Assembly (NCBI GenBank): GCA_001004265.1
Contig: LCQS01000001.1
Coordinates: 2,324 to 66,323, forward strand
Length of the DNA stretch: 64,000 bases
DNA from: Parcubacteria group bacterium GW2011_GWA2_51_10
GTDB lineage: Bacteria > Patescibacteriota > Minisyncoccia > Phycocordibacterales > UBA2100
Reading direction: 5' to 3'
Shown piece by piece: positions 1 to 48,912 of this stretch. Under the pieces are notes generated by a model that was not told the origin of the DNA, did not search any database, and was given only the letters and a program-made list of their open reading frames with translations. Each line of letters opens with the position of its first letter. Within the stretch, counting starts at the first letter, position 1. Made by a program: the position numbers and the translations under genes.

Positions 1-156
1 ACGACGTGTGAGTTTCGCGCGGAGTATGCATGCTATCGTGAGGCATCCTGCGGAAGACAATTGAACGGTCGCTGCGGATGGACAGAAACTGTCGAGCTTC
101 GCCAATGCCTTCAGAATTCTCCAGCGGTTGATGGAAATATTGAAGTCGTTTTCTAA
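1..156 (+). CDS. C-terminal fragment of an ORF cut by the window edge; Cys-rich tail, function unknown
   Basis: Frame 1 is open from nt 1 to TAA at 154-156 (TTCEFRAEYACYREASCGRQLNGRCGWTETVELRQC...VVF*). No family recognised. Confidence 0.3.
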   Translation, partial: TTCEFRAEYACYREASCGRQLNGRCGWTETVELRQCLQNSPAVDGNIEVVF

Positions 157-294
157 TCTTTGCGCAGAGTTCCCCGAAGCTCTGCTGCGGCGGTGGACTG
201 CGCAAAGGGCGGAGGGGGTCGGGGAACCGCATCCGGTTCTCCGTGGAGGAGAGCAGCGAGCGAAGCGAGCGTTGAGAACCGACGGTTCTCAAAA

Positions 295-333
295 AATAAA
301 ATACCTCGTCAGCTTGCTGCGAGGTATTTTATT
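295..333 (+). terminator. Stem-loop with U-rich 3' arm, likely intrinsic terminator of the upstream gene
   Basis: AATAAAATACCTCG (295-308) pairs perfectly with CGAGGTATTTTATT (320-333), with an 11-nt loop. A second 7-bp hairpin, GAGAACC/GGTTCTC, lies at 274-290. Confidence 0.6.
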
Positions 334-341
334 CTATGGAT

Positions 342-350
342 GGGTATAAT
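342..350 (+). promoter_or_regulatory. Extended -10 element (TGGGTATAAT)
   Basis: TATAAT at 345-350 preceded by TGG, 38 nt upstream of the GTG at 388. Confidence 0.4.
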
Positions 351-387
351 TCTCCCCACGTTGCTGCGACAGGGGTACAATTGAGGA

Positions 388-1065
388 GTGAAAACAAATG
401 AGGTGCGGGCTAAAGCAGTTACCTTAAGACAGCAGGGAAAGACATATTCGGAAATCCGCAATACTCTGACGGTCGATATACCGAAATCGACACTTTCCTA
501 TTGGTGTCGAGGTACCAAAATGTCTCGCGAAAGTCGCACAAGAATTGAGCTACTCTCACTCAGAAATTTAGCAATCGGGCGCGTCGTAGCTCTTGAGCTA
601 AAGCGAGCAACAAGGCGGGAAATGGAGAATCGTATGCGCGTAGATAATAAATTTCTGCAAAAACGTTTTAGACACGATAAGAATATTCAAAAGATCGCAT
701 TGGTCATGCTCTATTTAGCTGAAGGATCAAAGACCGATAGACGATCAGTAATGTTCGGTAATTCAAGCCCCGGTGTCATTAGATTATTTCTGAATTTATT
801 ACGAGCGGCCTTTCCCGTTGACGAGAAGAAGTTTAGGGTAACTGTTCAATGTCGCGCGGATCAAAACGTTCCAAGCCTCGAACGTTTTTGGAGTGATCTA
901 ACGCGCATACCCAGAAGACAATTTTATAGGGCACAGATAGATAGGCGCTCGATAAACAAGCCAACGCGTAAAGTTGAATATAAGGGCGTATGCCGGATCG
1001 ATTATTTTTCTTCAGCTATAGATTTTGAACTCAAACATATAGCAGAAGAGCTTCAAGAGATGTAA
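388..1065 (+). CDS. Free-standing LAGLIDADG-like homing-endonuclease-family protein with N-terminal helix-turn-helix
   Basis: N-terminus QQGKTYSEIRNTL...STLSYW is HTH-like. LYLAEGSK resembles the LAGLIDADG helix (xxLAxGxG/K). Size 225 aa. Start codon uncertain (GTG at 388 abuts GAGGAG). Confidence 0.5.
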   Translation: MKTNEVRAKAVTLRQQGKTYSEIRNTLTVDIPKSTLSYWCRGTKMSRESRTRIELLSLRNLAIGRVVALELKRATRREMENRMRVDNKFLQKRFRHDKNIQKIALVMLYLAEGSKTDRRSVMFGNSSPGVIRLFLNLLRAAFPVDEKKFRVTVQCRADQNVPSLERFWSDLTRIPRRQFYRAQIDRRSINKPTRKVEYKGVCRIDYFSSAIDFELKHIAEELQEM

Positions 1066-1082
1066 TATGCCTCAAATCTTCT

Positions 1083-1158
1083 GGGCCCGTAGCTCAATTG
1101 GTAGAGCGTCCGCATGGCATGCGGGAGGTAAGGGGATCGTAACCCCTCGGGTCCACCA
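1083..1158 (+). tRNA. tRNA-Ala (anticodon GGC) with encoded CCA
   Basis: Hand-folded cloverleaf: acceptor GGGCCCG/CGGGTCC with the G3:U70 alanine identity pair, D arm GCTC...GAGC, anticodon stem TCCGC/GCGGG with loop AT-GGC-AT, T arm AGGGG/CCCCT, 3' ACCA. Confidence 0.9.
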
Positions 1159-1417
1159 AATTTGATTTGACGAATAACACAACCCGCCCGCGCCCCCGCG
1201 CGACCGGAGGGAGCGCGTCCGAGTCGCTTTCCAGCGTGATCGGGGCGCTTCGGTTTTGAGTCACCACGCCGACCCAGTAGGTCATTCTGTTGAATGAGGA
1301 GCGTGCGACATCTGGGGTTCTGTTGGAAGTGCGTCCGAACTTATTAATACAATGACCACAGAGAGCATGGTATGCTATACGAAAGGTCGTTAATGGGCTC
1401 ATTTAAACGGCGCTTTT

Positions 1418-1669
1418 ATGGCGGAAAAACAAGTTGGTACAGTTACGCATTGGTACGATAAAATCGGCGTGGCGGTCGTTCGGCTCACCGGGAAGCTCGG
1501 TAAGGGCGACGCGATCGTAGTGCGAAAGGGCGATGAGGAATTTGAAGATACTGTCGCATCGCTGCAGATCGATCACGAGGATGTCACGGCAGCGAAAAAG
1601 GGAGATGATGCGGCAATCAAACTTTCGCAGCGCGCAAAAGAAGGTTCGGGAGTTTTTTTGGCTAGCTAA
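1418..1669 (+). CDS. Small translation-elongation-factor-like beta-barrel protein (EF-Tu domain 2-like)
   Basis: 83 aa. GTVTHWYDKIGVAVVRL...GDAIVV...V.SLQIDHEDV..AKKGD..AIKL matches the pattern of stand-alone EF-Tu domain II-like proteins. Confidence 0.55.
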   Translation: MAEKQVGTVTHWYDKIGVAVVRLTGKLGKGDAIVVRKGDEEFEDTVASLQIDHEDVTAAKKGDDAAIKLSQRAKEGSGVFLAS

Positions 1670-1704
1670 CGTTCATTCCCCAGTGCATCTCGGACGAGCC
1701 GAGC

Positions 1705-2070
1705 ATGGCCTGGGGCGTGATATGCTTTTTTATCATGGACGGTGGAATGCATCATCTGCACACGCGAAAAAGATTATATCGGACGCACGAGCGATATCCG
1801 CACCCGATTTTTTGGAAACGATGCCTCGATTATGTGATGTATGGCGCGGCGATAGCCGCGCCTGTCGCTCTTATGCCGCAGGTGTGGACGCTCTATTCGC
1901 AAAAAAATGCTTCTGGTCTCGCATTGCCGACGTGGGTGGCCCTCGGCTTGATCAACATCCTTTGGGTGTTGTATTCATTCGCGCATCGTGAGCCGCCGCT
2001 TGGAATAGCAAATGCGCTATTTGCAATGCTCAACTTCAGCATTGTCGCCGGCATTTTAATCTACGGCTAA
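1705..2070 (+). CDS. PQ-loop / SemiSWEET-like small membrane transporter
   Basis: Three predicted TM helices and a PQ motif (ALMPQVWTLY). The true start is probably an internal Met (about 1735 or 1747). Confidence 0.5.
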   Translation: MAWGVICFFIMDGGMHHLHTRKRLYRTHERYPHPIFWKRCLDYVMYGAAIAAPVALMPQVWTLYSQKNASGLALPTWVALGLINILWVLYSFAHREPPLGIANALFAMLNFSIVAGILIYG

Positions 2071-2096
2071 GGCTATTAGTTGGTACCGGCGCGCCA

Positions 2097-2669
2097 TTAC
2101 GGCGCCAATATATTTTTGGGCCGTACAGAACGATGCAGAAGACGCAGAACGAAATAATCGAGCCCATAATATCCAGCGACTTTCCACGCAAGGACAAGCG
2201 CAATCCCAAGTGTGAACATTATTGGATTGACAGATACAGTACCGGCAAGCATAAAATTGAGATTCATAAAAATACCGAAAAATGCCGAGATACCGACGAG
2301 AAGACCCACGATGAGAGCAATGCCGACGAGTAACTCTCCCCAGGCGATAAATGTGCTCCATATTTCCGCATTCGGCAAGACGACGTTCTCCAAGAAATAT
2401 GCATACCAACCCTGAACGTCAGGGTGCGCGCCACCGGTTTTTTCGAGCGCTCCTTTTACAAAACCGGTAATGGCTGTACCTGCCGCATCTCCGACCCATG
2501 CTGGGTTATGTAATTTTCCCCATCCAGCCTCCAACCACAGCCAGCCGACATATACGCGGACAATGAGCCAGAGAACCGAACTTCTTGTGTCTGAAAGAAG
2601 AAAATGTGAGAAAGGGGATTCCTCAACCAGGTAGCGACGCATCGAATAACTATATATGCACATTCCCAA
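2097..2669 (-). CDS. DoxX/DoxD-like membrane protein
   Basis: Four TM segments. LIVRVYVGWLWLEAGWGKL and WGELLVGIALIVG resemble the DoxX family. Confidence 0.55.
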   Translation of the reverse strand: MGMCIYSYSMRRYLVEESPFSHFLLSDTRSSVLWLIVRVYVGWLWLEAGWGKLHNPAWVGDAAGTAITGFVKGALEKTGGAHPDVQGWYAYFLENVVLPNAEIWSTFIAWGELLVGIALIVGLLVGISAFFGIFMNLNFMLAGTVSVNPIMFTLGIALVLAWKVAGYYGLDYFVLRLLHRSVRPKNILAP

Positions 2670-2760
2670 TTACCGAGCGATTTTATAGAGACGTGTGAAC
2701 AAGTTGTCACACATCATCGACATTCAATTTGCGCCGGAGAGAGTGTGCGGAAATTTTTCC

Positions 2761-2828
2761 CGCGGCAAGCCCCGTTAGAGACAAAAACGCGCTGCGAGCC
2801 CTCGCGGTCTCTAACGGGGCTTGCCGCG
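2761..2828. repeat. Perfect 22-bp inverted repeat containing the CCCGTTAGAG motif
   Basis: CGCGGCAAGCCCCGTTAGAGAC (2761-2782) and GTCTCTAACGGGGCTTGCCGCG (2807-2828), with a 24-nt loop. It lies in the divergent region between the DoxX-like and glycosidase genes. Confidence 0.85.
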
Positions 2829-2844
2829 CTCAGTGAGAGTCCTC

Positions 2845-2853
2845 TGATATACT
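2845..2853 (+). promoter_or_regulatory. Extended -10 (TGATATACT) placed 6 nt before the ATG, a leaderless-type layout
   Basis: TATACT at 2848-2853, TG at 2845-2846, ATG at 2860. No Shine-Dalgarno sequence in between. Confidence 0.45.
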
Positions 2854-2859
2854 CGAACG

Positions 2860-3909
2860 ATGGATATTCTTCACGAGGTCCGCAAGCTTCTTGAAGAAAA
2901 TCGCCGCATCACGGACGGTCACCAGTACACCGTGCCCTCCGGCGATCATTACCCCTATCAATGGCTCTGGGATTCGTGTTTTCACGCCATCATCCTCGCG
3001 CAATATGACGTGGAATCTGCGAAGGCCGAGATACGATCGCTGCTTTCAAAGCAGTTCTCAAGCGGTCTTGTGCCCCACATCATCTATTGGGCGCCCGGCA
3101 TTCTCCACCTCTTCCGCTGGGGTGTGGAGGGCACCAGCTCTATAACTCAGCCGCCGATGATCGCATACGCCGCGTGGGAGATACATCGCCGCTCGGAGGA
3201 CACGCCGTTCCTTGCCTCTATCTTTCCTGCACTTATTGCTTACTATGATTTCTTACTTTCAGAGCGTGATCCGAATAGCCATCATCTTGCCAGCATTATT
3301 AGTCCGGATGAATCCGGTGAGGACAACTCGCCTCGCTTTGACGTTCCTCTCGGGGTAACTCCCGCTGTCTCACTCAAGGATCATCTCGCGAAACGTACTG
3401 AGCTTGTGGAGAAAAACAGAGAGTGCAATTTTGACGCGCGATACTGCATGCGGGATTTCTTTTGGGTGAAAGACGTGCTTTTTAATACGGTATTGGTGGA
3501 GAATCTGCGCGTGCTTGCGAAAATCGCTGCACATCTCAATAGAGGTGAGCACGAGAGAACTCTTCTACGAAATGCCGATGCGGTTGCCGGCGCAATGCGA
3601 GAGAAGATGTTTGAAGATGGTTGCGCGCGATTCGGCATACGTACAACCTCGCTTCATGAGATGTCGTACCGATCGCAGGCGGAAGCTTTTTCGTGGCGAG
3701 GACCAGTGTGGATCGGTGCTCATTGGTTTATCTATCGTGGGCTCAAACGATATGGGTTTACAGAGGAAGCCGCTGAAATTTGCGATAAAAGCAAGTTACT
3801 GCTTGAACGTTCCGGATTTCGCGAGTGCTTTAATCCGGAAACAGGAAAGGGGCTAGGTGCACACAATTTCACGTGGGGCGCTCTGGTTCTTGATATGATG
3901 GAACAGTGA
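2860..3909 (+). CDS. Six-hairpin glycoside hydrolase (GH63 / trehalase / debranching-enzyme C-domain-like)
   Basis: Motifs YPYQWLWDSCFHA and DESGEDNSPRFD are typical of (alpha/alpha)6 glucosidases. 349 aa. Confidence 0.6.
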   Translation: MDILHEVRKLLEENRRITDGHQYTVPSGDHYPYQWLWDSCFHAIILAQYDVESAKAEIRSLLSKQFSSGLVPHIIYWAPGILHLFRWGVEGTSSITQPPMIAYAAWEIHRRSEDTPFLASIFPALIAYYDFLLSERDPNSHHLASIISPDESGEDNSPRFDVPLGVTPAVSLKDHLAKRTELVEKNRECNFDARYCMRDFFWVKDVLFNTVLVENLRVLAKIAAHLNRGEHERTLLRNADAVAGAMREKMFEDGCARFGIRTTSLHEMSYRSQAEAFSWRGPVWIGAHWFIYRGLKRYGFTEEAAEICDKSKLLLERSGFRECFNPETGKGLGAHNFTWGALVLDMMEQ

Positions 3910-4102
3910 ATCCCGTTAGAGATGCTGCAATACATGATCGATATATGGTTAAGACTGAAGAATATTACATTGCGCATCAAGGTATCATGACAATAAACGG
4001 AAACGCCTAAACTAATTACATGCTTGACCGAATATGATCACTAAGCTCGATAGCGAATGCCATTGCGCTAATGCAATAGGCGCTTCCTATCTCTAACGGG
4101 AT
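3910..4102 (+). repeat. Long-range 14-bp perfect inverted repeat (CCCGTTAGAG family) clamping the glycosidase stop to the kinase start
   Basis: ATCCCGTTAGAGAT (3910-3923) starts 1 nt after TGA (3907-3909). ATCTCTAACGGGAT (4089-4102) ends on the AT of ATG (4101). Confidence 0.85.
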
Positions 4103-4949
4103 GAAGATCGCATTCGATATCGGCGGCACATCAATGCGCGTGGCGCTTGCTGCAGCTGATCGCGTCAGCGAAGCGCGCAGAATATTCACTCCGCAGGATC
4201 CGAAAGATGGTGTCAAAGCGCTCGCGAACCTAATGCGCGAATGCGCGGGAGATGAATCAATCGAAGCCGCAGTGGGCGGTTTCCCCGGCGTAGTGGGTGG
4301 TGGCGCAATTCAATACGCGCCCAATCTTCCGGAGTGGAAGGATGTCTTGCTTGCCGAGGAGCTTACGCGCGCGCTTGAGGCGCCCGTAGAGGTGTTGAAC
4401 GATGGAGACTGCGCCGCGCTCGGAGAGGCGGCGTACGGCGCAGGCAGAGGCGCACGTATTGTTGCTTATGTCGGCATCGGCACCGGTATCGGCTGCGGCC
4501 GCATAATAGATGGCCGCATCGACAGTGGTGTCTACGATTTAGAGGCGGGGCACCAGATCGTGGATGCAAAAGAAGGCAGGGAATTGGAGGAGCTCGTTTC
4601 CGGACGCGCTTTTGAGAAGCGTTATGGCGTCCATCCGAGCAAGGCACCGCGCGAAGGGTACTCGGAAATGACGCCCATTCTCGCCGCCGGACTTTACAAT
4701 ATGGTACTGCATTGGTCGCCCGAAGTTTTCGTGCTCGGAGGCGGAATGATGAACGAAAATAACGGCTATCGACTTCTCGATGTCGCATCGGCGCTTAAGC
4801 GCTTTTCCTCGCCTTATCCGAAACTTCCCGAGCTTCGTCTTGCAGAGCACAAAGACGCGTCAGGTTTATACGGCGCTCTCGCTCTCATGCAAAATCCGCA
4901 GATGGGGGTTTATCCGAAATTCGATAAACAACAGAGCCGACCTCTCTAA
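4101..4949 (+). CDS. ROK/ASKHA-family sugar kinase (glucokinase-like)
   Basis: MKIAFDIGGTSMRVAL phosphate-1 motif, LNDGDCAALGEA, GIGTGIGCG. The classic ROK CxCGxxGC zinc motif is not seen. Confidence 0.7.
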   Translation: MKIAFDIGGTSMRVALAAADRVSEARRIFTPQDPKDGVKALANLMRECAGDESIEAAVGGFPGVVGGGAIQYAPNLPEWKDVLLAEELTRALEAPVEVLNDGDCAALGEAAYGAGRGARIVAYVGIGTGIGCGRIIDGRIDSGVYDLEAGHQIVDAKEGRELEELVSGRAFEKRYGVHPSKAPREGYSEMTPILAAGLYNMVLHWSPEVFVLGGGMMNENNGYRLLDVASALKRFSSPYPKLPELRLAEHKDASGLYGALALMQNPQMGVYPKFDKQQSRPL

Positions 4950-6630: not shown

Positions 6631-7065
6631 ATGCTGATAGGAGAATACGAACACACGCTCGACGAGAAAAAGCGAGTTTCGCTGCCCAAACCGTTTTCCA
6701 AAACATTGGGAAAGAAAATGGTTTTGACGCGCGGGCTCGATACATGCCTTTTTCTTTTTTCACAAGACGCATGGGAGAAAGTCGCAGAAAAATTGCAGGC
6801 GCTTTCATTTGCACAAGCAGACACGCGTGGATTCAATCGGTTTCTTTTATCTGGTGCGGTTGAGGTTGAGGCGGATGGAGCCGGCCGAATCCTCATTCCG
6901 GACCATCAGAAGCAATTCGCAAATCTCAAGCGCGCGGTCGTATTCGCGGGAGTTTCCGACCGGGTCGAGATCTGGGATGCGGCGCTTTGGAAGAACTACA
7001 AGACACGCATCGAAAAACAAGCTGATGCGATGGCAGAGAAGCTGGGAGAAATTGGAGCACTATAA
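6631..7065 (+). CDS. mraZ: Transcriptional regulator MraZ
   Basis: Two SpoVT/AbrB-like halves (DEKKRVSLP and DGAGRILIP). First gene of the dcw-type cluster. Confidence 0.92.
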   Translation: MLIGEYEHTLDEKKRVSLPKPFSKTLGKKMVLTRGLDTCLFLFSQDAWEKVAEKLQALSFAQADTRGFNRFLLSGAVEVEADGAGRILIPDHQKQFANLKRAVVFAGVSDRVEIWDAALWKNYKTRIEKQADAMAEKLGEIGAL

Positions 7066-7150
7066 GTAGTAAGTAGTAAGTAGTAAGTAGTAATTCAAAC
7101 GAGCAAATTAGACGATACCTACTAACTACTTTCTACTAACTACTAACTAG
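7063..7150 (+). repeat. Heptad-phased stop-codon module pair: (TAAGTAG)x4 plus complementary CTACTAA-type arm
   Basis: GTAG at 7066, 7073, 7080 and 7087. CTAC at 7119, 7126, 7133 and 7140, then CTAG at 7147. It starts on the mraZ TAA and ends on the rsmH GTG. Confidence 0.9.
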
Positions 7151-10296: not shown

Positions 10297-10387
10297 AATA
10301 GGGAAGCAGCGTATAGCGTATAGCGTGCAGCATATGACGTATCTTGTATCTACAAACTAAAAAATATAAACTGAAACTGTTTCTGAA

Positions 10388-10460
10388 GGCGCATTCGTCT
10401 AGGGGCCTAGGACACTACCCTCTCACGGTAGGAACACGGGTTCAAATCCCGTATGCGTCA
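10388..10460 (+). tRNA. tRNA-Glu (anticodon CUC), no encoded CCA
   Basis: Acceptor GGCGCAT/ATGCGTC, D region TCGTCTAGGGGCCTAGGAC typical of tRNA-Glu, anticodon stem CTACC/GGTAG with loop CT-CTC-AC, T arm ACGGG-TTCAAAT-CCCGT. Confidence 0.9.
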
Positions 10461-10529
10461 CAAAATTTTGCTATTCGGAGTGACGGACTAAGCAGCGTAT
10501 TCGAACTCTGTCGCGGGTCATATAAAAAC

Positions 10530-11225: not shown

Positions 11226-11792
11226 GTGGCAAGTCGAGATGTTTCATCTATTATTTTGTATACTGCCGCAGTGCGCAAAGCGCTGAAGAGGGAATTTTAT
11301 GTGCGCGATGGAGAAATCGTGGCGCGTGAGCTTTTGGGGAAATTCCTTGTGCGCAAAATTGGAACTAAAGAAATCGCAGCGATGATCACTGAGGTGGAAC
11401 TATACGAAGGATTCGAGGATAGGGCGTCGCACGGGTTCAAGAGAACAAAGCGCTCCGAAGTTATGTATGGCCCGGGCGGGCATTGGTACGTGTATCTATG
11501 TTACGGCATGTACGAAATGCTAAATATTGTAATAGGACCGGAAGATCATCCCGCGGCAATTCTGATTCGCGGCGCTGATACATATAATGGACCGGGAAAG
11601 CTGACACGAGCACTTCGTATCGACAGAACTCTGAACGCAATGCCGGCGAGCAAGGAGACAGGTTTATGGATTGAGGATAGGAGATTCGCAATCTCGCAAA
11701 AAGATATATTGCGAACGCCTCGCATCGGCATCGGCGATGCAGGACCGAAATGGACTAAACGTCTGCATAGATTCCTCTTGCAACAGAATTGA
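11226..11792 (+). CDS. mpg: DNA-3-methyladenine glycosylase (Mpg/AAG family)
   Basis: VARELLGKFLV, TEVELYEG..DRASH, GPGGHWYVYLCYGMYEMLNIV, ILIRG, GPGKLTRALRID. GTG start is uncertain. Confidence 0.8.
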   Translation: MASRDVSSIILYTAAVRKALKREFYVRDGEIVARELLGKFLVRKIGTKEIAAMITEVELYEGFEDRASHGFKRTKRSEVMYGPGGHWYVYLCYGMYEMLNIVIGPEDHPAAILIRGADTYNGPGKLTRALRIDRTLNAMPASKETGLWIEDRRFAISQKDILRTPRIGIGDAGPKWTKRLHRFLLQQN

Positions 11793-14651: not shown

Positions 14652-14691
14652 ACTAGTAAGTAGAGAGTAGTACGTAGAAAGTAGGGAGTAT
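14652..14691 (+). repeat. Heptad-phased xTAG module (six units) between ahcY and the hydrolase gene
   Basis: CTAG at 14653; GTAG at 14660, 14667, 14674 and 14681; GTAT at 14688 running into the ATG at 14692. Contains GGGAG as the SD. Confidence 0.85.
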
Positions 14692-15618
14692 ATGAAAGCA
14701 AAACTTGAAATGCGGGCGTGTCATCACGTCGAAATAATTACGCCGAAGAAGGTGCGTCTCAACGGGTTGTGGTTCGGACCCGCCTCGACGCGCATCCGCT
14801 CGTCGACGCGAGGCAGGCCTCGAAAATCAAAGCGCACGATAATTTGGGTTCATGGACTCGCAAGCTCGATGTTCAGCAAGCAGCGCATCATGGAACGACT
14901 CGCGAAAAAAGGTATTGCGGTACTCGCATTCAATAATCGCGGACATGACGCAATCAGTCGCATTGCGAAAGTTGGTGAGAAGAGAATTGCCAAATCGAGA
15001 TGGGGAGGAGGAGCGCACGAAATATTTGCCGAGTGTGTGGACGATATCGACGGTGCTATAGGATTTGCTCGCCGTGCCGGCGCCAAAGAGATATTTCTTG
15101 TGGGCCACTCAACTGGTTGCCAAAAATCCATATACTGGGCATACAAACGAAAAGGCCGAGGCATCAAAGGCATCGTTCTATTGGCACCAATGAGCGATTG
15201 GGCGGCGGAAATACATCTGAAAGGTAAAAAGAGAATCGACAAGAATAATGCTGTAGCTCGAGCACTCGTGCGAAACGGCCGGAAACACGAGTTGCTGCCG
15301 CAAAAGTTGTGGCCTGGTCCGATAGATGCACAGCGTTTCTTGAGTCTCTACACGCCTGACAGCATCGAAGAAATTTTTTCATATGCACAGCCGAAAAAGA
15401 ACCCTCGTGTTCTTCGTTCCATCCAAAAACCCTTACTTGTCATTTTGGCTGAAAAAGACGAGTTTGCTGACAGGTCGGCTGGAAGAATTGCCGACTGGTT
15501 CGCGAGACGTCTCGGAAAGAGGATACAGGCGGGCGTTATTGCGGATGTGAGTCATAGTTTAAAGGGAGGAGAGACAAAAGTCACTTCACTCATTCTTCAC
15601 TGGATGCGAAGGTTATAA
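14692..15618 (+). CDS. Alpha/beta-fold hydrolase
   Basis: Nucleophile elbow GHSTGC. HGL..S near the N-terminus (oxyanion region). Late His in DVSHSL. Confidence 0.65.
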   Translation: MKAKLEMRACHHVEIITPKKVRLNGLWFGPASTRIRSSTRGRPRKSKRTIIWVHGLASSMFSKQRIMERLAKKGIAVLAFNNRGHDAISRIAKVGEKRIAKSRWGGGAHEIFAECVDDIDGAIGFARRAGAKEIFLVGHSTGCQKSIYWAYKRKGRGIKGIVLLAPMSDWAAEIHLKGKKRIDKNNAVARALVRNGRKHELLPQKLWPGPIDAQRFLSLYTPDSIEEIFSYAQPKKNPRVLRSIQKPLLVILAEKDEFADRSAGRIADWFARRLGKRIQAGVIADVSHSLKGGETKVTSLILHWMRRL

Positions 15619-16267: not shown

Positions 16268-16337
16268 CCCAGAGGTCGGTTCTCTGGGATTTCGGCGGTA
16301 GACCCTAGAAAACTCAGAGGTCGGTTCTCTGGGATTT
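16268..16337 (+). terminator. Tandemly duplicated terminator hairpin (two copies, 45-bp period)
   Basis: CCCAGAG-GTCGGTT-CTCTGGG-ATTT at 16268-16292 and CTCAGAG-GTCGGTT-CTCTGGG-ATTTT at 16313-16338, just after the fasciclin stop. Confidence 0.7.
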
Positions 16338-17131: not shown

Positions 17132-17182
17132 AACAGCGCGCCCACTTTCCTCCGAAGCGGGCGCGATTATATGGCGGTCGGC

Positions 17183-17454: not shown

Positions 17455-17719
<265 letters not shown>

Positions 17720-17847: not shown

Positions 17848-18294
17848 ATGGAACAACTTTTAACTGTATTCGGCGTCAATTGGAAACTCCTGCTCGCGCA
17901 GGGTTTTAACTTCGCGCTCCTCCTCATTGTTCTTACATATTTTCTCTACAAGCCAGTTCTCAAAATCATCGATGAGCGGCGCGAGAAAATCGCCCAGGGC
18001 GTGAAGACGGCCGAAGCGGCTGCACGGAAACTGGAAGAGGCGAAAAAAGAAAGCGATTCGATTATTGGCAGCGCGTCGCGTGAGGCGGAGGGGCTCGTTG
18101 CCGTCGCGCGCACGCGCGCGAACGAGCAGGGCGTCGAGATAATTCGCAGCGCGGAAAACAGAGCCGATTCGATTCTTGCGGACGCAAAGGCACGCGCGGA
18201 AGAAGAAAAACGTCAGGCGCTCTTTGAGAGCGAGAAGGAAATCACGCGCGCGGCGCTTCTTGCGGCTGAGAGAATATTGAAAACTAGTAAGTAG
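17848..18294 (+). CDS. atpF: F-type ATP synthase subunit b
   Basis: N-terminal TM followed by a long charged Ala/Glu/Arg-rich helix, in the expected operon position. The last four codons (ACT AGT AAG TAG) are repeat units. Confidence 0.8.
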   Translation: MEQLLTVFGVNWKLLLAQGFNFALLLIVLTYFLYKPVLKIIDERREKIAQGVKTAEAAARKLEEAKKESDSIIGSASREAEGLVAVARTRANEQGVEIIRSAENRADSILADAKARAEEEKRQALFESEKEITRAALLAAERILKTSK

Positions 18295-18323
18295 AAAGCA
18301 GTTAGTAGTACATAGAAAATTCC
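18284..18323 (+). repeat. Heptad-phased xTAG module between atpF and atpH
   Basis: CTAG at 18284, GTAG at 18291, GCAG at 18298, GTAG at 18305, ATAG at 18312. ATG at 18324. Confidence 0.8.
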
Positions 18324-18713
18324 ATGCCTGACTCATACGCAAAAGCACTCTGGGTAACGATTCAGCGCGGCGCTAAGTCAAAAGAAGCGGTCGAATCTAT
18401 ACGGCAGATTCTGGAGAGGGATGGCCGGATGGCGCTTCTGCCTCGCATAGTGCGCTCGCTCCAGCGCCACGCTGCGCGGGAAGGGCGTCGCGAAGGCGTA
18501 GTGCTTTCAGTTGCGCGGCAGGAGGATGCGCGACGAGCTCGTAGCGAAATCGGGGGCCTCCTCCCGGAAATGGGTATACGAAAAGATGAGGTTACAACTC
18601 AAATCGATGAACACCTTATTGGCGGATGGCGACTAGAAGGTCGGGATCGGCTCGCCGATGCGAGTTACAAGAAATATCTGCTGGACATGTATAATGCGGC
18701 CACAAAATCATAG
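18324..18713 (+). CDS. atpH: F-type ATP synthase subunit delta (short, 129 aa)
   Basis: Operon position, plus an OSCP C-terminal pattern ([22 protein letters not shown]). Confidence 0.7.
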
Positions 18714-21275: not shown

Positions 21276-23136
<1,861 letters not shown>

Positions 23137-23138
<2 letters not shown>

Positions 23139-23379
23139 GGCGACCTTCCATCTCACCATCTCCTCCGTCGGGCAGACGCACTTTGATGGTGAAGCGCGCT
23201 CCGCAACATTCCCGGGAGCCGACGGAGAATTTACGATTCTTCCTAAGCACGAGCCGTTCATCTCGACCCTCAGCTCCGGTACGATCATTGTACGACCCGA
23301 AAATGGCGAGACGCAGGAGTTTTCAAATGACAACGGCGTTTTGGAGTGCTCGTCAAACAAAGTAGTAGTTTTGCTCTAG
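23137..23379 (+). CDS. atpC: F-type ATP synthase subunit epsilon, beta-sandwich domain only (80 aa)
   Basis: The N-terminal domain pattern (..P...G..GILP.H.P.I..L..G...V) is present. The ORF ends where the C-terminal helical hairpin would begin. Confidence 0.8.
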
Positions 23380-23423: not shown

Positions 23424-23452
23424 CTACTAACTACTTTCTACTAGCTAAGGAA
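23424..23452 (+). repeat. Heptad-phased CTAC module upstream of the RNHCP gene
   Basis: CTAC at 23424, 23431 and 23438, and CTAA at 23445, followed by the AAGGA SD and the ATG at 23453. Confidence 0.75.
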
Positions 23453-33429: not shown

Positions 33430-36400
33430 ATGCGCGGGTACGACCATAAAAAGATAGAGAAAAAATGGCAAAAGAAATGGGAAGCGGACAACATTTACAC
33501 AACGCCGGACACATCTCCCAAGAAAGATAATTTCTATCTTCTGACCGAATTTCCATATCCTTCGGGTAACCTGCATGTCGGGCATTGGTACGCATTTTCT
33601 GTTCCAGACATTTTAGCGCGGTACCTGCGAATGCGCGGGAAAAACGTGCTGTATCCTATCGGTTTTGATGCATTCGGACTACCTGCGGAGAACGCTGCCA
33701 TAAAAAATAAACTAAACCCGCGAACGTGGACAGAAGAGAATATCGCGTACATGCGCAAGCAAATTCGCTCCATGGGCGCGTCGTTCGATTGGTCGCGAGA
33801 GGTAGTCACCTGTGATCCCGCGTATTACAAATGGACGCAGTGGCTTTTTCTACAGCTTTTCAAAAAGGGGCTCGTATATCAAAAGGAGACAGCAGTGAAC
33901 TGGTGTCCAAATTGCAAGACTGTGCTTGCGAACGAGCAGGTGGTGGATGGGAGATGCGAACGCTGCGACACGGAAGTAGTTCAGAAGCAGATGCTCCAAT
34001 GGAATATCAAAATTACTGATTACGCGGATCGGCTTATCGATGATTTAGAAAAGCTGGACTGGCCGAGGGAAATCAAGGAATCGCAGAAAAATTGGATAGG
34101 GCGCTCCGAAGGCGCCGAAATTGATTTTCCGCTCGCAATCGATGATGTGAAAAGAATCATTCTTCTCCATGGGAAGGGCGGCTCGGCGGTAGGAGCGTGG
34201 AAGCCGTGGCTTAAAATGAAGCTCGAGGCGATGGGTTATGAGGTGCAGATACCAGCTCTCCCTAATACAAACGAACCAAATGATGAAGAGCAGGCGGATT
34301 ATGTGCAAAAGCATTGCACGCTCGACGAGCACACAGCAATCGTCGGGCATTCCTTCGGGGGAGTTGTCGCGTTGCGGCTTTTGGAGCGAGGCGTGAAGGT
34401 AAGACGCGTCGCGCTCGTGGCAACACCGTACTCCGGCGTATACCTTGATGGAAAGGAGCGGCCGAGTGTAACGGCCATTCTAAAAAAAGGTTTCGATTTT
34501 GAAAAGATTAAGAAGCAATCGGACTTCGTGCTTTTGTATGACACAAACGATCACGTCGTTCCCATGAGCGATGGTGAGGCATTTGCGGAGAAGTTGGGCT
34601 GCTATCTCGTGCGGGGAAAGGGTGTCGAGAGCCACTTCAACGGCGCTGTGGAGCCGGATGTTTTTCTTGCGGCGGTGCCTGCCATACGCGTATTTACGAC
34701 GCGCCCCGATACTCTATTCGGTGCGACATACCTTGTATTGGCACCAGAGCATCCTTGGTTGACGCTCGCGCTGCAGCACAAGACGGTATTAAAGAATCAC
34801 GGCGAGGTTCAATCCTACGTTGATCAATCAAAAAAGAAGACAGAACTCCAGCGTCAAACGGGAGAAAAAGAAAAGACAGGCGTACGACTCGAAAGAGTCG
34901 AGGCGGTTAATCCCGCAACGGGTGGAAAAATCCCGATGTTCGTGGCGGATTACGTACTCGGCCATTACGGCACAGGTGCGATTATGGCAGTTCCCGCACA
35001 CGATCAGCGCGACTTCGAATTCGCGAAGAAATTCAATCTGCCGGTGCAGCACGTACTAGCTACAACGATTCAGAGCACGGCAGGCGCTGATGCAGTCCAT
35101 GCGCGAGAACCCTTTGTCGAGAAAAACGCAGTTATGTGCATCATAAAGCATTGGGCAAAAGATGAATACCTGTGTATCAAGTGGCGGGATTATGATGTTC
35201 GCGCCTTTGTAAGCGGAGGAATAGAAAAGGGCGAGGACGCCGTGGCAGCAGGGATACGAGAAATTCGTGAGGAGACGGGCTACCTAAATCCGAAATTTAT
35301 CAGGCACGTCGGCGGACCGTCCATCGTAGAGTTTTACCACCAGCGGAAAAAGGAAAATACGCGCACGCGCTTCGAGTATCTCTACTTCGAGCTCGAAGAT
35401 GGTAAACAGGAAGAGATTAGCACCGCGGAGGATGCAAAGCACGAGATTTTCTGGAAAACCTTCGCCGAGCTGTCCGGCTACCTTACGATTAAAGAGAATG
35501 CAAAAGTATTAGGACTTCTTGCAACCGGATCCGAGGGTGCGTACGTAGGCGAAGGTATTCTTATGAACTCCGACGGATTTGACGACATGTCGTCCGAGGA
35601 AGCCCGACGCGCAATCACCGAGAAATACGGACGCCTGAAAACTACATACAAATTACGCGACTGGATCGTCTCGCGCCAGCGATACTGGGGCGTTCCGATC
35701 CCTATCGTTCATTGCAAAAAATGCGGCGCTGTATCTGTCAGCGAAGAAGATTTACCCGTTGTACTTCCTGAAGTAGATGATTACCTGCCGGAAGGAACGG
35801 GAAAGTCGCCGCTCGCAAAAAAGCGCGAATGGGTTGAAGTAAAATGTCCTTCATGCGGAGGGGTGGGGGAGCGGGAAACGGATACGCTCGATACATTCGT
35901 TGATTCTTCGTGGTATTTTCTCCGGTACGCTGATCCACTGAATAGTGAAGAGTTTGCCTCCAAGGAGAATCAAAAACAGTGGATGCCCGTAGATTTATAT
36001 TCTGGCGGTGCAGAGCACACGACGATGCACGTCCTCTATTCGCGTTTTTGGCACAAGGCACTTTTCGATCTCGGACTCGTCGCTGACTCGGAGCCGTACG
36101 TGCGCCGGATGAATCGCTCACTTATTTTGGGACCCGATGGACAGAAGATGAGCAAGTCGCGCGGGAACGTCGTTGATCCAGACGCAGTAGTGGAGCGGCT
36201 CGGTGCAGATACGGTGAGAATGTATCTTGCGTTCATTGGTCCATACAATGAAGTTTCGAGCTACCCGTGGAATCCAGACGGGGTGGTAGGCGTTCGTCGC
36301 TTTCTAGAACGCGTTTTTCGTGCGGAAGCACTCGTTGTGGAGGCAGATACAGATGAGCTTAGCGAATCTCTCCACGAGACGTTGAAAAAAGTGGGAGAGG

Positions 36401-36807
36401 ACATAGAGCAGATGAAATTTAATACGGCCGTTTCCGCGCTCATGATCCTGCTTAATGCGATCGAGAAAGCGAAAACTGTGAGCACATCGCAGTGGGACGT
36501 CTTCCTGCGAATGCTCGCACCATTCGCTCCGCATGTGGCAGAAGAATTATGGAGCGTGCGCCACCAAGGAACCATTCACGACGAAGAGTGGCCGGAATAT
36601 GATGCATCACTCATCGCGCGAGCCATGCGTACCATTGTGATTCAGGTGAATGGCAAAAAAAGGGGAGAGTTGCGCGTGGCATCAGACGCAGCGAACGATG
36701 CTGTAGAGTCCGACGCACGGCAACAAATCGCTCCTCATTTAGAAGGGAAGCGGGTATTGAAAACAATCTTCGTACCAGGCCGTCTCGTGAATTTCGTTGT
36801 TGTATGA
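33430..36807 (+). CDS. leuS: Leucyl-tRNA synthetase with two inserted enzyme domains (alpha/beta serine hydrolase; NUDIX)
   Basis: HIGH = HVGH, KMSKS = KMSKSRGN, CP1 editing motifs TTRPDTLFGATY and GTGAIMAVPAHDQRDFEFA. 1125 aa. Extra modules at nt 34132-34686 (GHSFGG) and 35059-35538 (Nudix box at 35215-35283). Confidence 0.93.
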   Translation: MRGYDHKKIEKKWQKKWEADNIYTTPDTSPKKDNFYLLTEFPYPSGNLHVGHWYAFSVPDILARYLRMRGKNVLYPIGFDAFGLPAENAAIKNKLNPRTWTEENIAYMRKQIRSMGASFDWSREVVTCDPAYYKWTQWLFLQLFKKGLVYQKETAVNWCPNCKTVLANEQVVDGRCERCDTEVVQKQMLQWNIKITDYADRLIDDLEKLDWPREIKESQKNWIGRSEGAEIDFPLAIDDVKRIILLHGKGGSAVGAWKPWLKMKLEAMGYEVQIPALPNTNEPNDEEQADYVQKHCTLDEHTAIVGHSFGGVVALRLLERGVKVRRVALVATPYSGVYLDGKERPSVTAILKKGFDFEKIKKQSDFVLLYDTNDHVVPMSDGEAFAEKLGCYLVRGKGVESHFNGAVEPDVFLAAVPAIRVFTTRPDTLFGATYLVLAPEHPWLTLALQHKTVLKNHGEVQSYVDQSKKKTELQRQTGEKEKTGVRLERVEAVNPATGGKIPMFVADYVLGHYGTGAIMAVPAHDQRDFEFAKKFNLPVQHVLATTIQSTAGADAVHAREPFVEKNAVMCIIKHWAKDEYLCIKWRDYDVRAFVSGGIEKGEDAVAAGIREIREETGYLNPKFIRHVGGPSIVEFYHQRKKENTRTRFEYLYFELEDGKQEEISTAEDAKHEIFWKTFAELSGYLTIKENAKVLGLLATGSEGAYVGEGILMNSDGFDDMSSEEARRAITEKYGRLKTTYKLRDWIVSRQRYWGVPIPIVHCKKCGAVSVSEEDLPVVLPEVDDYLPEGTGKSPLAKKREWVEVKCPSCGGVGERETDTLDTFVDSSWYFLRYADPLNSEEFASKENQKQWMPVDLYSGGAEHTTMHVLYSRFWHKALFDLGLVADSEPYVRRMNRSLILGPDGQKMSKSRGNVVDPDAVVERLGADTVRMYLAFIGPYNEVSSYPWNPDGVVGVRRFLERVFRAEALVVEADTDELSESLHETLKKVGEDIEQMKFNTAVSALMILLNAIEKAKTVSTSQWDVFLRMLAPFAPHVAEELWSVRHQGTIHDEEWPEYDASLIARAMRTIVIQVNGKKRGELRVASDAANDAVESDARQQIAPHLEGKRVLKTIFVPGRLVNFVVV

Positions 36808-40185: not shown

Positions 40186-41466
40186 ATGCACGGCGTATTT
40201 CACGATAGCGGCAGGGAAGTAGCAGGTTCGAAGATGCCTCATGTATGGGCGGGCGTGTTTGTCATACTGATTTTTGGCTTTGGGTATCTCATCGGCGTGC
40301 GTGGTTTTCTTGCGGAGCGCATACCGGCACCAATTGTGTCGGCAATAGCAGCTCCATTGCAACCGCAGGGCGTCGATTTCTCGCCCGTATGGAAAGCATG
40401 GCGCGTTATCGACGAGAAATTCGTTCCAGCGTCAGTTGCCACAACTACGTCGATTGCCACGAGCACGCAGGATGCTAATCAAAAGCGCGTGTGGGGGATG
40501 ATACAGGGCCTCGCAGCCTCGCTTGACGATCCCTACACGTTCTTTCTCCCGCCGGTAGAGAAAAAACTATTCGAGGATGATATGAGCGGCAGCTTCGAAG
40601 GAGTCGGCATGGAAATTGCAGTGCGCGATCAGGTGCTCACCGTCGTTTCGCCCTTAAAAGGAACCCCATCTGAGAGAGCGGGCATCAAAAGCGGAGACAA
40701 AGTTTTAAAAATCGATGGCGAAGATACGCGCGGCATGGATATTACCGAAGCCGTGAAGCGCATTCGCGGTCCGCAGGGCACGGAGGTGACGTTGACGGTA
40801 TTTCGTGATGGGTGGGATGAGCCGCTCGATATCAAAGTGAAGCGCGACGTTATCAATGTTCCGACTTTGACGACGGAAGTGCGGTCGGATGGCATCTTCG
40901 TGCTCACGCTCTCGAGCTTCACTGCGCAATCTCCGGATCTTTTCAGAAACGCACTGCGCGAATTTGTTACGTCGGGGAATACGAAACTCATCATCGATCT
41001 GCGGCGGAACCCCGGTGGGTACCTCGAGGCCGCGGTTGATATGGCGAGTTGGTTTTTGCCAGCCGGAAAAGTTGTCGTAACGGAAGATTATGCAGGACAT
41101 GCGCAAAATGTCGTGCATCGCTCGCGCGGATACGACATCTTCAATGACAACCTAAAGATGGTTGTGCTCGTGGATAAAGGCTCGGCGTCAGCATCAGAAA
41201 TTCTCGCAGAAGCCTTGCGCTATCACGGCAAAGCGACGCTCATCGGCGCGAGCACGTTCGGAAAAGGGTCCGTGCAGGAACTGGTGGAAATTACCCCGGA
41301 AACATCGCTCAAGGTTACGATTGCTCTCTGGCTCGGCCCGAACGGGCAGTCGATTCCGACTTCCGGCATTGTGCCCGATGTGGAAGTGAAATTGACTGAA
41401 GATGACACGGTGGCGGGGAAGGACCCACAGCTTGATAAAGCAATTGAAATAGTTAAGAGTTTATAG
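40186..41466 (+). CDS. ctp: Carboxy-terminal processing protease (S41) with PDZ domain
   Basis: N-terminal TM, PDZ (GIKSGDKVLKIDG), catalytic Ser in GSASASEI, Lys in FGKGSVQ. Confidence 0.85.
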   Translation: MHGVFHDSGREVAGSKMPHVWAGVFVILIFGFGYLIGVRGFLAERIPAPIVSAIAAPLQPQGVDFSPVWKAWRVIDEKFVPASVATTTSIATSTQDANQKRVWGMIQGLAASLDDPYTFFLPPVEKKLFEDDMSGSFEGVGMEIAVRDQVLTVVSPLKGTPSERAGIKSGDKVLKIDGEDTRGMDITEAVKRIRGPQGTEVTLTVFRDGWDEPLDIKVKRDVINVPTLTTEVRSDGIFVLTLSSFTAQSPDLFRNALREFVTSGNTKLIIDLRRNPGGYLEAAVDMASWFLPAGKVVVTEDYAGHAQNVVHRSRGYDIFNDNLKMVVLVDKGSASASEILAEALRYHGKATLIGASTFGKGSVQELVEITPETSLKVTIALWLGPNGQSIPTSGIVPDVEVKLTEDDTVAGKDPQLDKAIEIVKSL

Positions 41467-41528
41467 TTGTTAGTTTTTAGTTTGCACAGTGCGACTTACT
41501 CTAAACTTAAAACTCAAAACTTAAAACT
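41463..41528 (+). repeat. Heptad-phased AGTT / AACT complementary arms bridging the ctp stop and the rplI start
   Basis: AGTT at 41465, 41472 and 41479. AACT at 41504, 41511, 41518 and 41525. ATG at 41529. The arms are about 12/14 complementary. Confidence 0.8.
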
Positions 41529-42254: not shown

Positions 42255-42289
42255 ATAGCCTCTAGCTACGAGCTTCTAGCTTCTAGAAA
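42255..42289. repeat. Heptad-phased CTAG module in the rpmA / 42316-gene divergent spacer
   Basis: ATAG at 42255, CTAG at 42262, CGAG at 42269, CTAG at 42276, CTAG at 42283. Confidence 0.7.
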
Positions 42290-42724: not shown

Positions 42725-42770
42725 GTAGAAAATTTTCACTAGTCCGTAGAAGCTAGTCCCTAGAACCTAT
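42725..42770 (+). repeat. Heptad-phased xTAG module upstream of the exonuclease gene
   Basis: GTAG at 42725, CTAG at 42739, GTAG at 42746, CTAG at 42753, CTAG at 42760, and CTAT at 42767 overlapping the ATG at 42769. Confidence 0.75.
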
Positions 42771-43362: not shown

Positions 43363-43430
43363 TTGTGCGTGAGCATGTATATAACTTTCGTAAGGCACCT
43401 TACTACGAACCACGTACTACTAACTAATCC

Positions 43431-46741: not shown

Positions 46742-46776
46742 TTAGTGAGTAGTTAGTAGAAAGTAGTAAGTAGATA
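46742..46776 (-). repeat. Heptad-phased module immediately upstream of the polymerase start (CTAC arm in gene orientation)
   Basis: Plus-strand TTAG at 46742 and GTAG at 46749, 46756, 46763 and 46770. Confidence 0.8.
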
Positions 46777-46795
46777 AGCAACCCATAGACCTCAT

Positions 46796-48829: not shown

Positions 48830-48912
48830 TTGGTGGTCAGTAGTAAAGTAGCGAATGCCAAGGAAATAGGTTGCGTTTTAACTACTTACTACTAACTACT
48901 TTCTACTCACTA
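48830..48912. repeat. Heptad module pair shared by two convergent genes
   Basis: A degenerate GTAG arm (48840-48852). CTAC at 48882, 48889, 48896 and 48903, then CTAG at 48910, which is the stop codon of the minus-strand M23 gene. Confidence 0.8.

Follow-up and report, generated by a model that had tools for sequence, protein, structure and literature searches.

We found arrays of tandem heptanucleotide repeats, arranged in strict 7-nt phase between genes, in a 64,000-nt stretch of contig LCQS01000001.1 from Parcubacteria group bacterium GW2011_GWA2_51_10 (this whole stretch is hereafter called the window, and coordinates refer to it unless another locus is named). The arrays are non-random, intergenic, phased, polar and lineage-specific, and they are able to form stable hairpins that bridge the stop codon of one gene and the start of the next. 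They survive only outside reading frames; they reach as far as the start codons and enter 3' tails by a few codons. As a class they are very probably heptanucleotide simple sequence repeats (SSRs) of the type known as STRR (short tandemly repeated repetitive) sequences. The reading that we favour goes further, namely that these STRR-like arrays, in a genome of the Candidate Phyla Radiation (CPR) that is poor in Shine-Dalgarno (SD) motifs, have a function in translational coupling; for this statement as a whole we estimate a probability of roughly 0.4.

Seven was the only repeat period, among periods 4 to 12, that gave strong self-match windows, and Tandem Repeats Finder (TRF) placed period-7 arrays of 3.9-5.6 copies at 12 places. 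CTACT-phased arrays numbered 9-12, as against none in 20 dinucleotide-preserving shuffles, and runs of phased CTA triplets numbered 16, as against none in 30 shuffles. The autocorrelation at lag 7 was 0.284 in intergenic DNA, the maximum of lags 1-15, and 0.245 in coding DNA, which is background. Altogether there are 13-16 phased heptad arrays in the 64-kb window and two more in the next 10 kb of the same genome, one of the TAG type immediately behind the dnaJ stop and one of the CTAG type upstream of the grpE -10 box. Arrays hold 6.2% of the intergenic bases of the window; 400 of the 457 array nucleotides are intergenic, and the remainder overlaps 3' tails by at most 18 nt each. The array positions first reported (7063-7150, 14653-14688, 18284-18312, 23063-23084 with 23107-23135, 23424-23445, 46742-46770 and 48882-48910) proved exact, and Pfam matches confirmed the accompanying gene assignments (mraZ, rsmH, the atp genes, Y-family polymerase and M23 peptidase). 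Further arrays, overlooked at that stage, lie at 17455-17485, 41449-41483 with 41498-41528, 42256-42286, 42739-42769 and 48840-48853.

The arrays placed by TRF consist of 7-nt units joined head to tail in at least three copies, and a common or near-variant unit recurs at many dispersed loci of the genome. Several unit families, TAAGTAG/CTACTAA, CTAGAAG and TAGTTNN/AACTNAA, coexist in this one genome, all with the same 7-nt phase; unit positions 6-7 are variable and the core is fixed. We considered a single core (CTA) for all arrays and rejected it, as the AACTNAA arm is mostly without CTA.

Four sites in the window are inverted pairs that are predicted to fold into long imperfect hairpins, in which helices of 5-7 bp are separated by single mismatches. 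These lie at mraZ|rsmH (-30.9 kcal/mol, z -3.3), atpD|atpC (-32.1 kcal/mol, z -4.1), S41|rplI (-22.7 kcal/mol, z -2.0) and between the convergent genes for a 243-aa protein and the M23 peptidase (-20.6 kcal/mol, z -1.95). Pairing of the arms had been proposed at the outset, and fold prediction bears it out; the 13-nt core reported for the atpD/atpC spacer (AGTAGAAAGTAGT / ACTACTTTCTACT) is likewise present. Single arrays of the window formed no hairpin. The arms are complementary within a site although the unit family varies between sites (TAGTTNN/AACTNAA versus AGTAGNN/NNCTACT). They are not exact inverted copies of each other (at mraZ, the 5' arm is perfectly homogeneous and its 3' partner is not), and the two arms therefore appear to homogenise independently.

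The two arms of a pair also differ sharply in composition, with 7-10 G and no C in the 5' arms and 0-1 G and 7-11 C in the 3' arms of the window pairs. In all four, the TAG-type arm comes first and the CTA-type arm second. The upstream stop codon lies on or inside the 5' arm in three pairs; in two, those ahead of atpC and rplI, the 3' arm continues in phase right into an ATG (CTATG) that has no SD, and both of these starts are supported by Pfam alignments that begin at residue 1-4. As had been claimed, TAG-type arms put stops in all three frames. The companion claim that CTAC-type arms are free of stops failed, for these arms hold 2-3 TAA or TAG in two of the three frames.

The atpD|atpC and S41|rplI junctions are both on the + strand. 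At the first, the 5' arm (AAGTAGT/AAGTAGA, four units, 23061-23090) overlaps the last six atpD codons (native E-V-V, then S-R-K and the stop), and the 3' arm (ACTACTN, 4.6 units) occupies 23106-23137 and leads into the atpC ATG. At the second, the 5' arm belongs to the second unit family (TAGTTNN, 41449-41483) and extends over the native tail of the S41 protease gene and its stop, and the 3' arm (AACTNAA, 41498-41528) leads into the ATG of rplI (L9) at 41529. To mimic a ribosome terminating on the upstream stop, we deleted the 5' arm in silico and followed the start region, taken as -12 to +6. The predicted unpaired probability of this region increased two- to threefold, for atpC from 0.35 to 0.73 and for rplI from 0.21 to 0.62, and the folding energy went from about -40 to -6 kcal/mol at atpD|atpC and from about -33 to -9 kcal/mol at S41|rplI. 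On these predictions, the layout of both junctions fits what would be expected for translational coupling in a genome that rarely uses SD motifs.

The working model is as follows. Within an operon, a transcribed pair would form an imperfect hairpin of 25-30 bp, with the upstream stop at its 5' foot and the downstream start at or near its 3' foot. Its action would most likely be post-transcriptional: the hairpin would hide the SD-less downstream start, and only its melting by a ribosome that terminates on the 5' arm would expose this start, thereby coupling translation of the two cistrons; the freed, G-less 3' arm would then provide a leader free of structure. In addition, the hairpin may protect the upstream segment of the mRNA or punctuate it. 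Single C-type or CTAG-type arrays would provide G-poor leaders only, and single TAG-type arrays would be all-frame stop pads.

A further pair is found at mraZ|rsmH (7063-7150, + strand). Its 5' arm (7063-7093; TAAGTAG, 4.4 copies at 100% identity by TRF; G 8, C 0) starts on the mraZ TAA stop, so that the layout can be read as TAA followed by four GTAGTAA units, with GTAG at 7066, 7073, 7080 and 7087 and stops in three of three frames. A 25-nt AT-rich loop (7094-7118), without inner hairpin or U-tract, separates it from the 3' arm (7119-7149; CTACTAA/CTACTTT, 4.4 copies at 83% identity; G 0, C 9), which runs CTACTAA, CTACTTT, CTACTAA, CTACTAA and then CTAG|TG, with CTAC at 7119, 7126, 7133 and 7140 and CTAG at 7147, and ends at GTG 7150. 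The GTG is the first possible, mechanical start of the rsmH open reading frame (ORF), and the array had been described as ending exactly on the rsmH start. We do not support this point. The motif ATGCGCACGCGA, with TGGAGGA/TGGGGGA upstream, is conserved in six relatives; it corresponds to ATG 7189 in the window, which is preceded by the SD GGGGGA, and two gene callers start rsmH there, giving a 329-aa product. To judge from this conservation, ATG 7189 and not GTG 7150 is most likely the start. As this ATG is kept in the relatives, the array ends 39 nt upstream of the likely rsmH start, and the hairpin appears to be an insertion of about 85 nt between the mraZ stop and a conserved, SD-led leader. 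It could at most have a role in mRNA stability or processing, or be a passenger.

The order of the two arms holds far beyond the window. We scanned genomes, one per species, for (CTACTNN)3CTAC and obtained at least 120 stretches; arrays in opposite orientation no more than 200 nt apart were taken as pairs. Among the matches listed, the order was always 5'-AGTAG arm to CTACT arm-3', by 21:0 in genome contigs together with the window and by 15:0 in viral contigs, and the AGTAG arm came first in 35 of 35 non-redundant pairs from genome and viral contigs. Whichever strand is read, the arm order is unchanged; the polarity therefore belongs to the element itself and is not set relative to genes. A fixed polarity in turn puts TAG-type arms after stops and CTA-type arms before starts in co-directional, convergent and divergent spacers alike, and this explains the rule, noted in the initial annotation, that GTAG-type arms follow stops and CTAC-type arms precede starts. 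For pairs the order of TAG-type arm first and CTA-type arm second stands in all cases (four of four in the window and 35 of 35 in bacterial and viral contigs, among the matches listed), whereas the orientation rule for single arrays is a tendency and not a law, because the G-type arrays at 14653-14688 and 18284-18315 also directly precede starts. Sorting the at least 120 genome loci by gene context (longest-ORF calls) gave results too noisy for use in GC-rich genomes, and it is confounded, since a TAG-type arm by its nature terminates any ORF.

The matches listed include Cyanobacteria, Bacteroidota, Acidobacteriota (many of them Pyrinomonadaceae), Planctomycetota, Chloroflexota and several CPR lineages, and the unit CTACTTA/TAAGTAG recurs among them in Daviesbacteria, Saccharibacteria, other Patescibacteria and Terrimonas. 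CTACT-type arrays were common in the IMG/VR viral contigs (L145-L264), where they reached about 17 units and included inverted pairs. In three metagenome-assembled genomes of Pyrinomonadaceae (L019, L082 and L091), (AGTAGAC)n and (GTCTACT)n arms enclose a GC-rich hairpin that an A run precedes and a T run follows. By its sequence, this layout reads as a bidirectional intrinsic terminator framed by heptad arrays. Loops flanked in this way were exceptional among the 35 listed pairs and occurred in a few Pyrinomonadaceae pairs.

Close relatives of the window genome share the architecture and not the individual arrays. The mraZ-rsmH spacers of relatives with 83-90% MraZ identity had no arrays, and the closest relative had only single units there (TAGTAGT...ACTAC). 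Similarly, the arrays of the window were found neither in the S41-rplI-rpmA-RNase T cluster of relative L127 nor in the atp operon of relative L128. The latter instead has a CTAG-type hairpin that lies exactly in the gap from the atpE stop to the atpF ATG (-27.3 kcal/mol, z -4.3), and relative L126 has a pair that starts on the murE stop (-39.9 kcal/mol). Just past the 3' arm of the heptad pair in L126, the sequence at 11720-11760 of that locus (TCTATCGGCTAGGAC...) resembles by eye the start of a tRNA gene. The rpmA leader of L127 contains five phased CTA triplets; it is orthologous to window positions 42256-42286, and all spacer bases are different. Among the matches listed by a metagenome scan with AtpC for close relatives of the atp operon, the loci were 29-39% identical and without arrays. 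It would seem from these alignments that the architecture is a family trait while individual arrays turn over.

We propose that the arrays arise and turn over locally, with replication slippage as the probable mechanism. This is suggested because the arms are perfectly homogeneous, several unit families occur in one genome, arrays are absent from orthologous sites of close relatives, and they nucleate on native stops and tails. Copy-number polymorphism was not seen in 10 contigs from the same population, drawn from several samples and 99.8-100% identical through the arrays, although consensus assemblies are a weak test of this.

Several of our results weigh against the coupling reading. The z score is only about -2 for two of the four hairpins, and we infer the functional steps from folding predictions. 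At mraZ|rsmH, the predicted accessibility of ATG 7189 was 0.50 both with and without the 5' arm; this unchanged accessibility, and the SD that the likely start has of its own, make the site unfit for the coupling logic. Coupling is also not a general cause of the polarity, because some Pyrinomonadaceae pairs hold a terminator between their arms, which would place the arms on separate transcripts. The 10 population contigs showed none of the length variation that would point directly to slippage. Lastly, the arrays are not positionally conserved between relatives, as neutral or selfish turnover would predict.

This last point leads to the alternative that has to be taken most seriously: the arrays may be neutral or selfish SSR expansions, arising by slippage or inverted duplication and tolerated outside reading frames, with their fit from stop to start left behind by purifying selection. 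We consider this unlikely, but it accounts for a good deal. Close relatives lack arrays at orthologous sites and have them elsewhere, as expected of rapid turnover; whole short spacers are filled, and arrays halt exactly at an ATG or inside dispensable tails; the several unit families are unrelated and have the period alone in common; and the same units appear in many phyla and viral contigs. Heptanucleotides are, according to the citation of Mrazek 2007 in PMC4679880, the most abundant class of long SSR in prokaryotes. Neutral expansion would not predict, however, the absolute 35:0 polarity of pairs (among the matches listed), the strict G-only and C-only composition of the arms, the complementarity within a site of arms whose units differ between sites, or a phased-CTA array at the orthologous rpmA leader of two genera in which all spacer bases have changed. 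The lack of length polymorphism within the population argues against it as well.

Distinctly improbable, in our estimate, is a role in RNA processing or termination, in which the hairpins would be RNase III sites, 3'-end stabilisers or attenuators that set the mRNA levels of cistrons such as atpD and atpC. Stems of 25-30 bp are long enough for RNase III, the sites lie between cistrons needed in differing stoichiometry and between genes that converge, REP-type hairpins lying downstream of ORFs are believed to act in this manner (PMC3733652), and the loop of some Pyrinomonadaceae pairs contains a GC-rich hairpin and T run, as described above. These last are the exceptional cases, however, and none of the array hairpins of the window possesses a GC-rich core or U-tract: the GC content of the arms is about 30-40%, and they are not followed by a T run. 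The canonical GC-rich, U-tailed terminators of this genome are elsewhere (for example 16268-16333 and 17137-17165), and no terminator-like site coincided with an array between 6500 and 24500. An intrinsic terminator reading of the window arrays was accordingly rejected. The failure of single arrays to fold also speaks against a general processing role. At gathering score, Rfam 15 matched nothing at the arrays and only two tRNAs in the window. A promoter in the loop was considered as well, and the one weak match (TAGAAA-16-TAAAAT, 23071-23098) is no more than shuffles give.

A further possibility, which we regard as rather remote, is that the arrays are binding sites for an oligomeric RNA- or single-stranded-DNA-binding protein that reads one trinucleotide per 7 nt (HutP-like XAG-N4, a TRAP-like ring, S1 or a cold-shock protein), the sites together forming a post-transcriptional regulon. 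The 5' arms are exactly (UAG-N4)n, the spacing recognised by HutP (PMC2425495), the unit core is fixed with positions 6-7 free, and the rpmA leaders of the window and L127 have their CTA/TAG triplets in common and their four spacer bases not. MacGregor made the same proposal for the TAACTGA repeats (PMC4679880). Such a reader is difficult to reconcile with the lack of a core common to all unit families, most AACTNAA units being without CTA or TAG, and with the two arms of one transcript displaying complementary and not identical motifs. Across many phyla, the same units would require a shared factor, and among the genes called in about 85 kb of the genome there was no Pfam match of the HutP or TRAP type.

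The polarity is the most interesting feature of the arrays, and no functional reading alone explains why it is absolute. It is conceivable, though we give the idea very little weight, that it records how the arrays are made. Some enzyme might add repeats to 3' ends in the manner of telomere healing, and heptad pairs would then be scars of a widespread pathway of DNA-end or hairpin processing, later co-opted as stop-to-start coupling hairpins in SD-poor lineages. Two G-strand extensions would meet head to head, or hairpin-primed copying would make the second arm. The supporting pattern is that the G arm runs 5' to 3' toward the centre on both strands in 35 of 35 listed pairs, and that the convergent GGGAATC pairs of Xanthomonas are alike in this.

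Least probable of all is a mobile or enzyme-made element, either a GTAG-tagged relative of repetitive extragenic palindromic (REP) sequences and REPINs spread by a RAYT-type transposase or a MITE (miniature inverted-repeat transposable element) with heptad arrays as inverted ends: GTAG is the conserved tag of the largest REP superfamily, REP 'HH' dimers carry it outside with the polarity seen here (PMC3733652), fixed end polarity is natural for ends recognised by a transposase, and the arrays are extragenic, between unidirectional and convergent genes; but no GC-rich palindrome of 20-40 bp stands beside the tag in the window, the four pairs have AT-rich, unstructured loops that resemble one another in neither sequence nor length, target-site duplications are missing, single arms are common, arms grow out of native coding tails, and annotated genes in about 85 kb of the genome include no Pfam match to a Y1 transposase. 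We rejected the MITE and REP readings on the unrelated loops, the missing REP body and the arms made from native coding sequence.

The remaining arrays are mostly single. On the + strand, a TAG-type array at 14653-14688 fills the whole 40-nt spacer from the AdoHcy hydrolase stop to the alpha/beta-hydrolase ATG at 14692, and its last unit is now GGGAG, which is SD-like. A CTAGAAG-type array of 4-5 units (17455-17485, +) lies upstream of atpE (ATG 17492), and a TAG-type array (18284-18315, +) overlaps the last atpF codons and stop and ends 9 nt before atpH. Upstream of an RNHCP-domain gene (ATG 23453, with an SD-like AAGGA) is a CTACT-type array at 23424-23447 (+). The array upstream of rpmA (L27), in a divergent spacer, is of the CTAGAAG type (42256-42286, - strand), and a CTAGTCC/CTAGAAC array (42739-42769, +) continues in phase into the ATG with which an RNase T-like exonuclease gene starts. 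A degenerate CTACT-type remnant (43403-43428, +) lies close upstream of a NUDIX gene (ATG 43431). A single array that is of the CTACT type when read on the minus strand (46742-46778) spans from the stop of a LexA/S24-like gene to the Y-family polymerase ATG at 46738. The pair between convergent genes (48840-48912, no strand assigned) has its AGTAG arm at 48840-48853, then a loop, and its CTACT arm at 48882-48912, ending on the M23 peptidase stop; each of the two convergent transcripts reads the AGUAG arm first. Arrays in forward orientation end within a few nt of SD-less starts at atpC, rplI, the RNase T-like gene, dinB, atpE and rpmA. Shortly upstream of tRNA-Glu (10388-10461), at 10308-10342, is a heptad of a kind other than TAG/CTA, (AGCGTAT)x2.7.

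Where arrays overlap coding sequence, their contribution is small. It had been suggested that the repeat supplies coding sequence, including the tails of AtpD and AtpF. This holds for the last 1-4 codons and the stop and not for the rest of the tails: AEVVSR of AtpD aligns to the conserved F1-beta C-terminus GGIEEVVAK of solved structures, and the tails of AtpF and S41 have homologous counterparts in relatives. Judging by these alignments, only the last 1-4 codons and stop of AtpD, AtpF and S41 seem to be made of repeat. The native coding tails may have seeded the arrays, e.g. GAA GTA GTA, which encodes E V V.

As to the host, an uncultured groundwater bacterium, the MraZ homologues nearest to its own, at 78-90% identity, carry the labels Candidatus Kaiserbacteria or Paceibacterota, which places the window genome in the CPR/Patescibacteria (Paceibacteria/Kaiserbacteria-like), and identical copies of the region are present in several groundwater metagenome assemblies. 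Only about a fifth of the genes are preceded by an SD-like motif. In many first genes an extended -10 box (TGnTAnAAT) stands about 6 nt ahead of the ATG (e.g. 388, 2860, 32129, 51647 and 54355, and L143 4362-4405). The rarity of SD motifs and the position of these boxes suggest that leaderless mRNAs are widespread; a literature search combining CPR, leaderless and SD found nothing.

We also made several observations on the genes of the window. AtpC (epsilon; 23137-23379, 80 aa) consists of the N-terminal beta-sandwich domain alone, without the C-terminal helical domain, and AtpH (18324-18713, 129 aa) matches only positions 62-168 of the OSCP profile. A NUDIX hydrolase gene (21276-21683) is situated within the atp operon between atpG and atpD and overlaps the atpD start by 4 nt. 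At 44166/44167, inside a Phage_integrase (XerC/D-like) gene, the window is missing 56 nt that are present in the same-population assemblies L140 and L142; this gap, which breaks the frame, is either a real deletion or an assembly difference. In a comparison of 1-4899 with the same-population assembly L001, identity drops sharply where the GMP synthase gene ends (4900): it is 100%, next 96.6% and finally 81-87%, a pattern that suggests a strain-level recombination boundary. A class I aminoacyl-tRNA synthetase of 1125 aa (33430-36807) has Pfam matches to Ser_hydrolase and NUDIX in the middle of the protein, and this stretch may be an unusual inserted domain.

In the initial annotation the arrays were not recognised as a described class of element, whereas heptad hairpins and arrays are in fact known as the cyanobacterial STRR (PMC2670836), from Xanthomonas (PMC4692102) and as the TAACTGA repeats (PMC4679880). 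The roles it put forward (insulation or coupling, RNA hairpins inside operons, a protein-binding RNA motif) coincide with those proposed in this literature. STRR are tandem 7-bp repeats of filamentous cyanobacteria, known since 1990, that can form hairpins, for example in hupS-hupL, for which roles in transcript stability or translational coupling have been proposed (PMC2670836). Like them, the arrays described here are 7-bp tandem repeats, dispersed and intergenic, whose inverted sets fold into hairpins between the cistrons of an operon, and CTACT-containing units such as CCCTACT were among the loci that we found in Nostoc, Trichodesmium and Moorena. The original STRR host is a heterocystous cyanobacterium, however, and not a member of the CPR/Patescibacteria; the units here are AT-rich and rich in stop codons (TAAGTAG, CTAGAAG, TAGTTNN), and the arms start at or within the upstream stop and extend in phase into the downstream ATG.

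The GGGAATC repeats of Xanthomonas form about 185 arrays, with 70-75 inverted pairs per genome that are always convergent; they lie much nearer to the end of the upstream ORF than to the following one, and their positions are not conserved from one species to another (Rehm et al. 2015; PMC4692102). Both these and our arrays are intergenic heptamers, mostly of about four units, with inverted pairs in which the G-rich strand comes first. The Xanthomonas unit, in contrast, is rich in G-tracts, was studied as a G-quadruplex former and has no stop codons, whereas the window arrays are without G-tracts and their 3' arm abuts start codons. The TAACTGA repeats of Beggiatoaceae, Cyanobacteria and Bacteroidetes are forward repeats that end one to a few nt before SD-less starts, ribosomal-protein genes included; they carry stops in all frames, overlap upstream ORF ends by up to 18 nt and are, in BOGUAY, almost only direct (169 direct sets and one indirect) (MacGregor 2015; PMC4679880). 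The C-type unit of the window, read as TAACTAC, shares 5 of 7 bases with TAACTGA and differs in two, and the window arrays too end within a few nt of SD-less starts. Their units, however, are TAACTAC/CTACTAA, CTAGAAG and AACTNAA, not TAACTGA, half of the arrays stand in inverted pairs, and several unit families occur together.

More distant comparisons can be made with REP sequences, bacterial interspersed mosaic elements (BIMEs) and REPINs, and with HutP and TRAP sites. The former resemble the arrays in their GTAG motif, their extragenic position downstream of ORFs in unidirectional and convergent spacers, and their GTAG-outermost dimers that form larger hairpins (PMC3733652). A REP is a GC-rich palindrome with a single unpaired tag, whereas here the tag-bearing heptad is itself tandem and has no REP body. 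HutP reads three XAG triplets with 4-nt spacers (PMC2425495), and the 5' arms of the window have this XAG-N4 spacing and the same 7-nt period. The HutP site, however, consists of two same-sense XAG clusters around a terminator stem in one operon leader of Bacillus; in the window, the second arm is the complement (CUA) and the sites are dispersed.

The class of element is therefore a described one and its mechanism is not; to our knowledge, a function or a generating mechanism is still to be shown for any of the heptanucleotide repeats known in bacteria since 1990. No new principle is demonstrated here. New are the occurrence of the class in CPR, the absolute polarity of the pairs and the two junctions at which removal of the 5' arm raises the predicted accessibility of the start. 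The CPR example shows a tiny genome that spends about 6% of its scarce intergenic DNA on such arrays, and atpD|atpC and S41|rplI are testable junctions for the old question of what heptad hairpins do, as well as for how internal cistrons are initiated in bacteria largely without SD motifs. Across phyla and viral contigs, the comparison yields an architectural rule, the G/UAG arm coming first in 35 of 35 listed pairs, and even if the arrays were neutral this rule would still constrain their origin.

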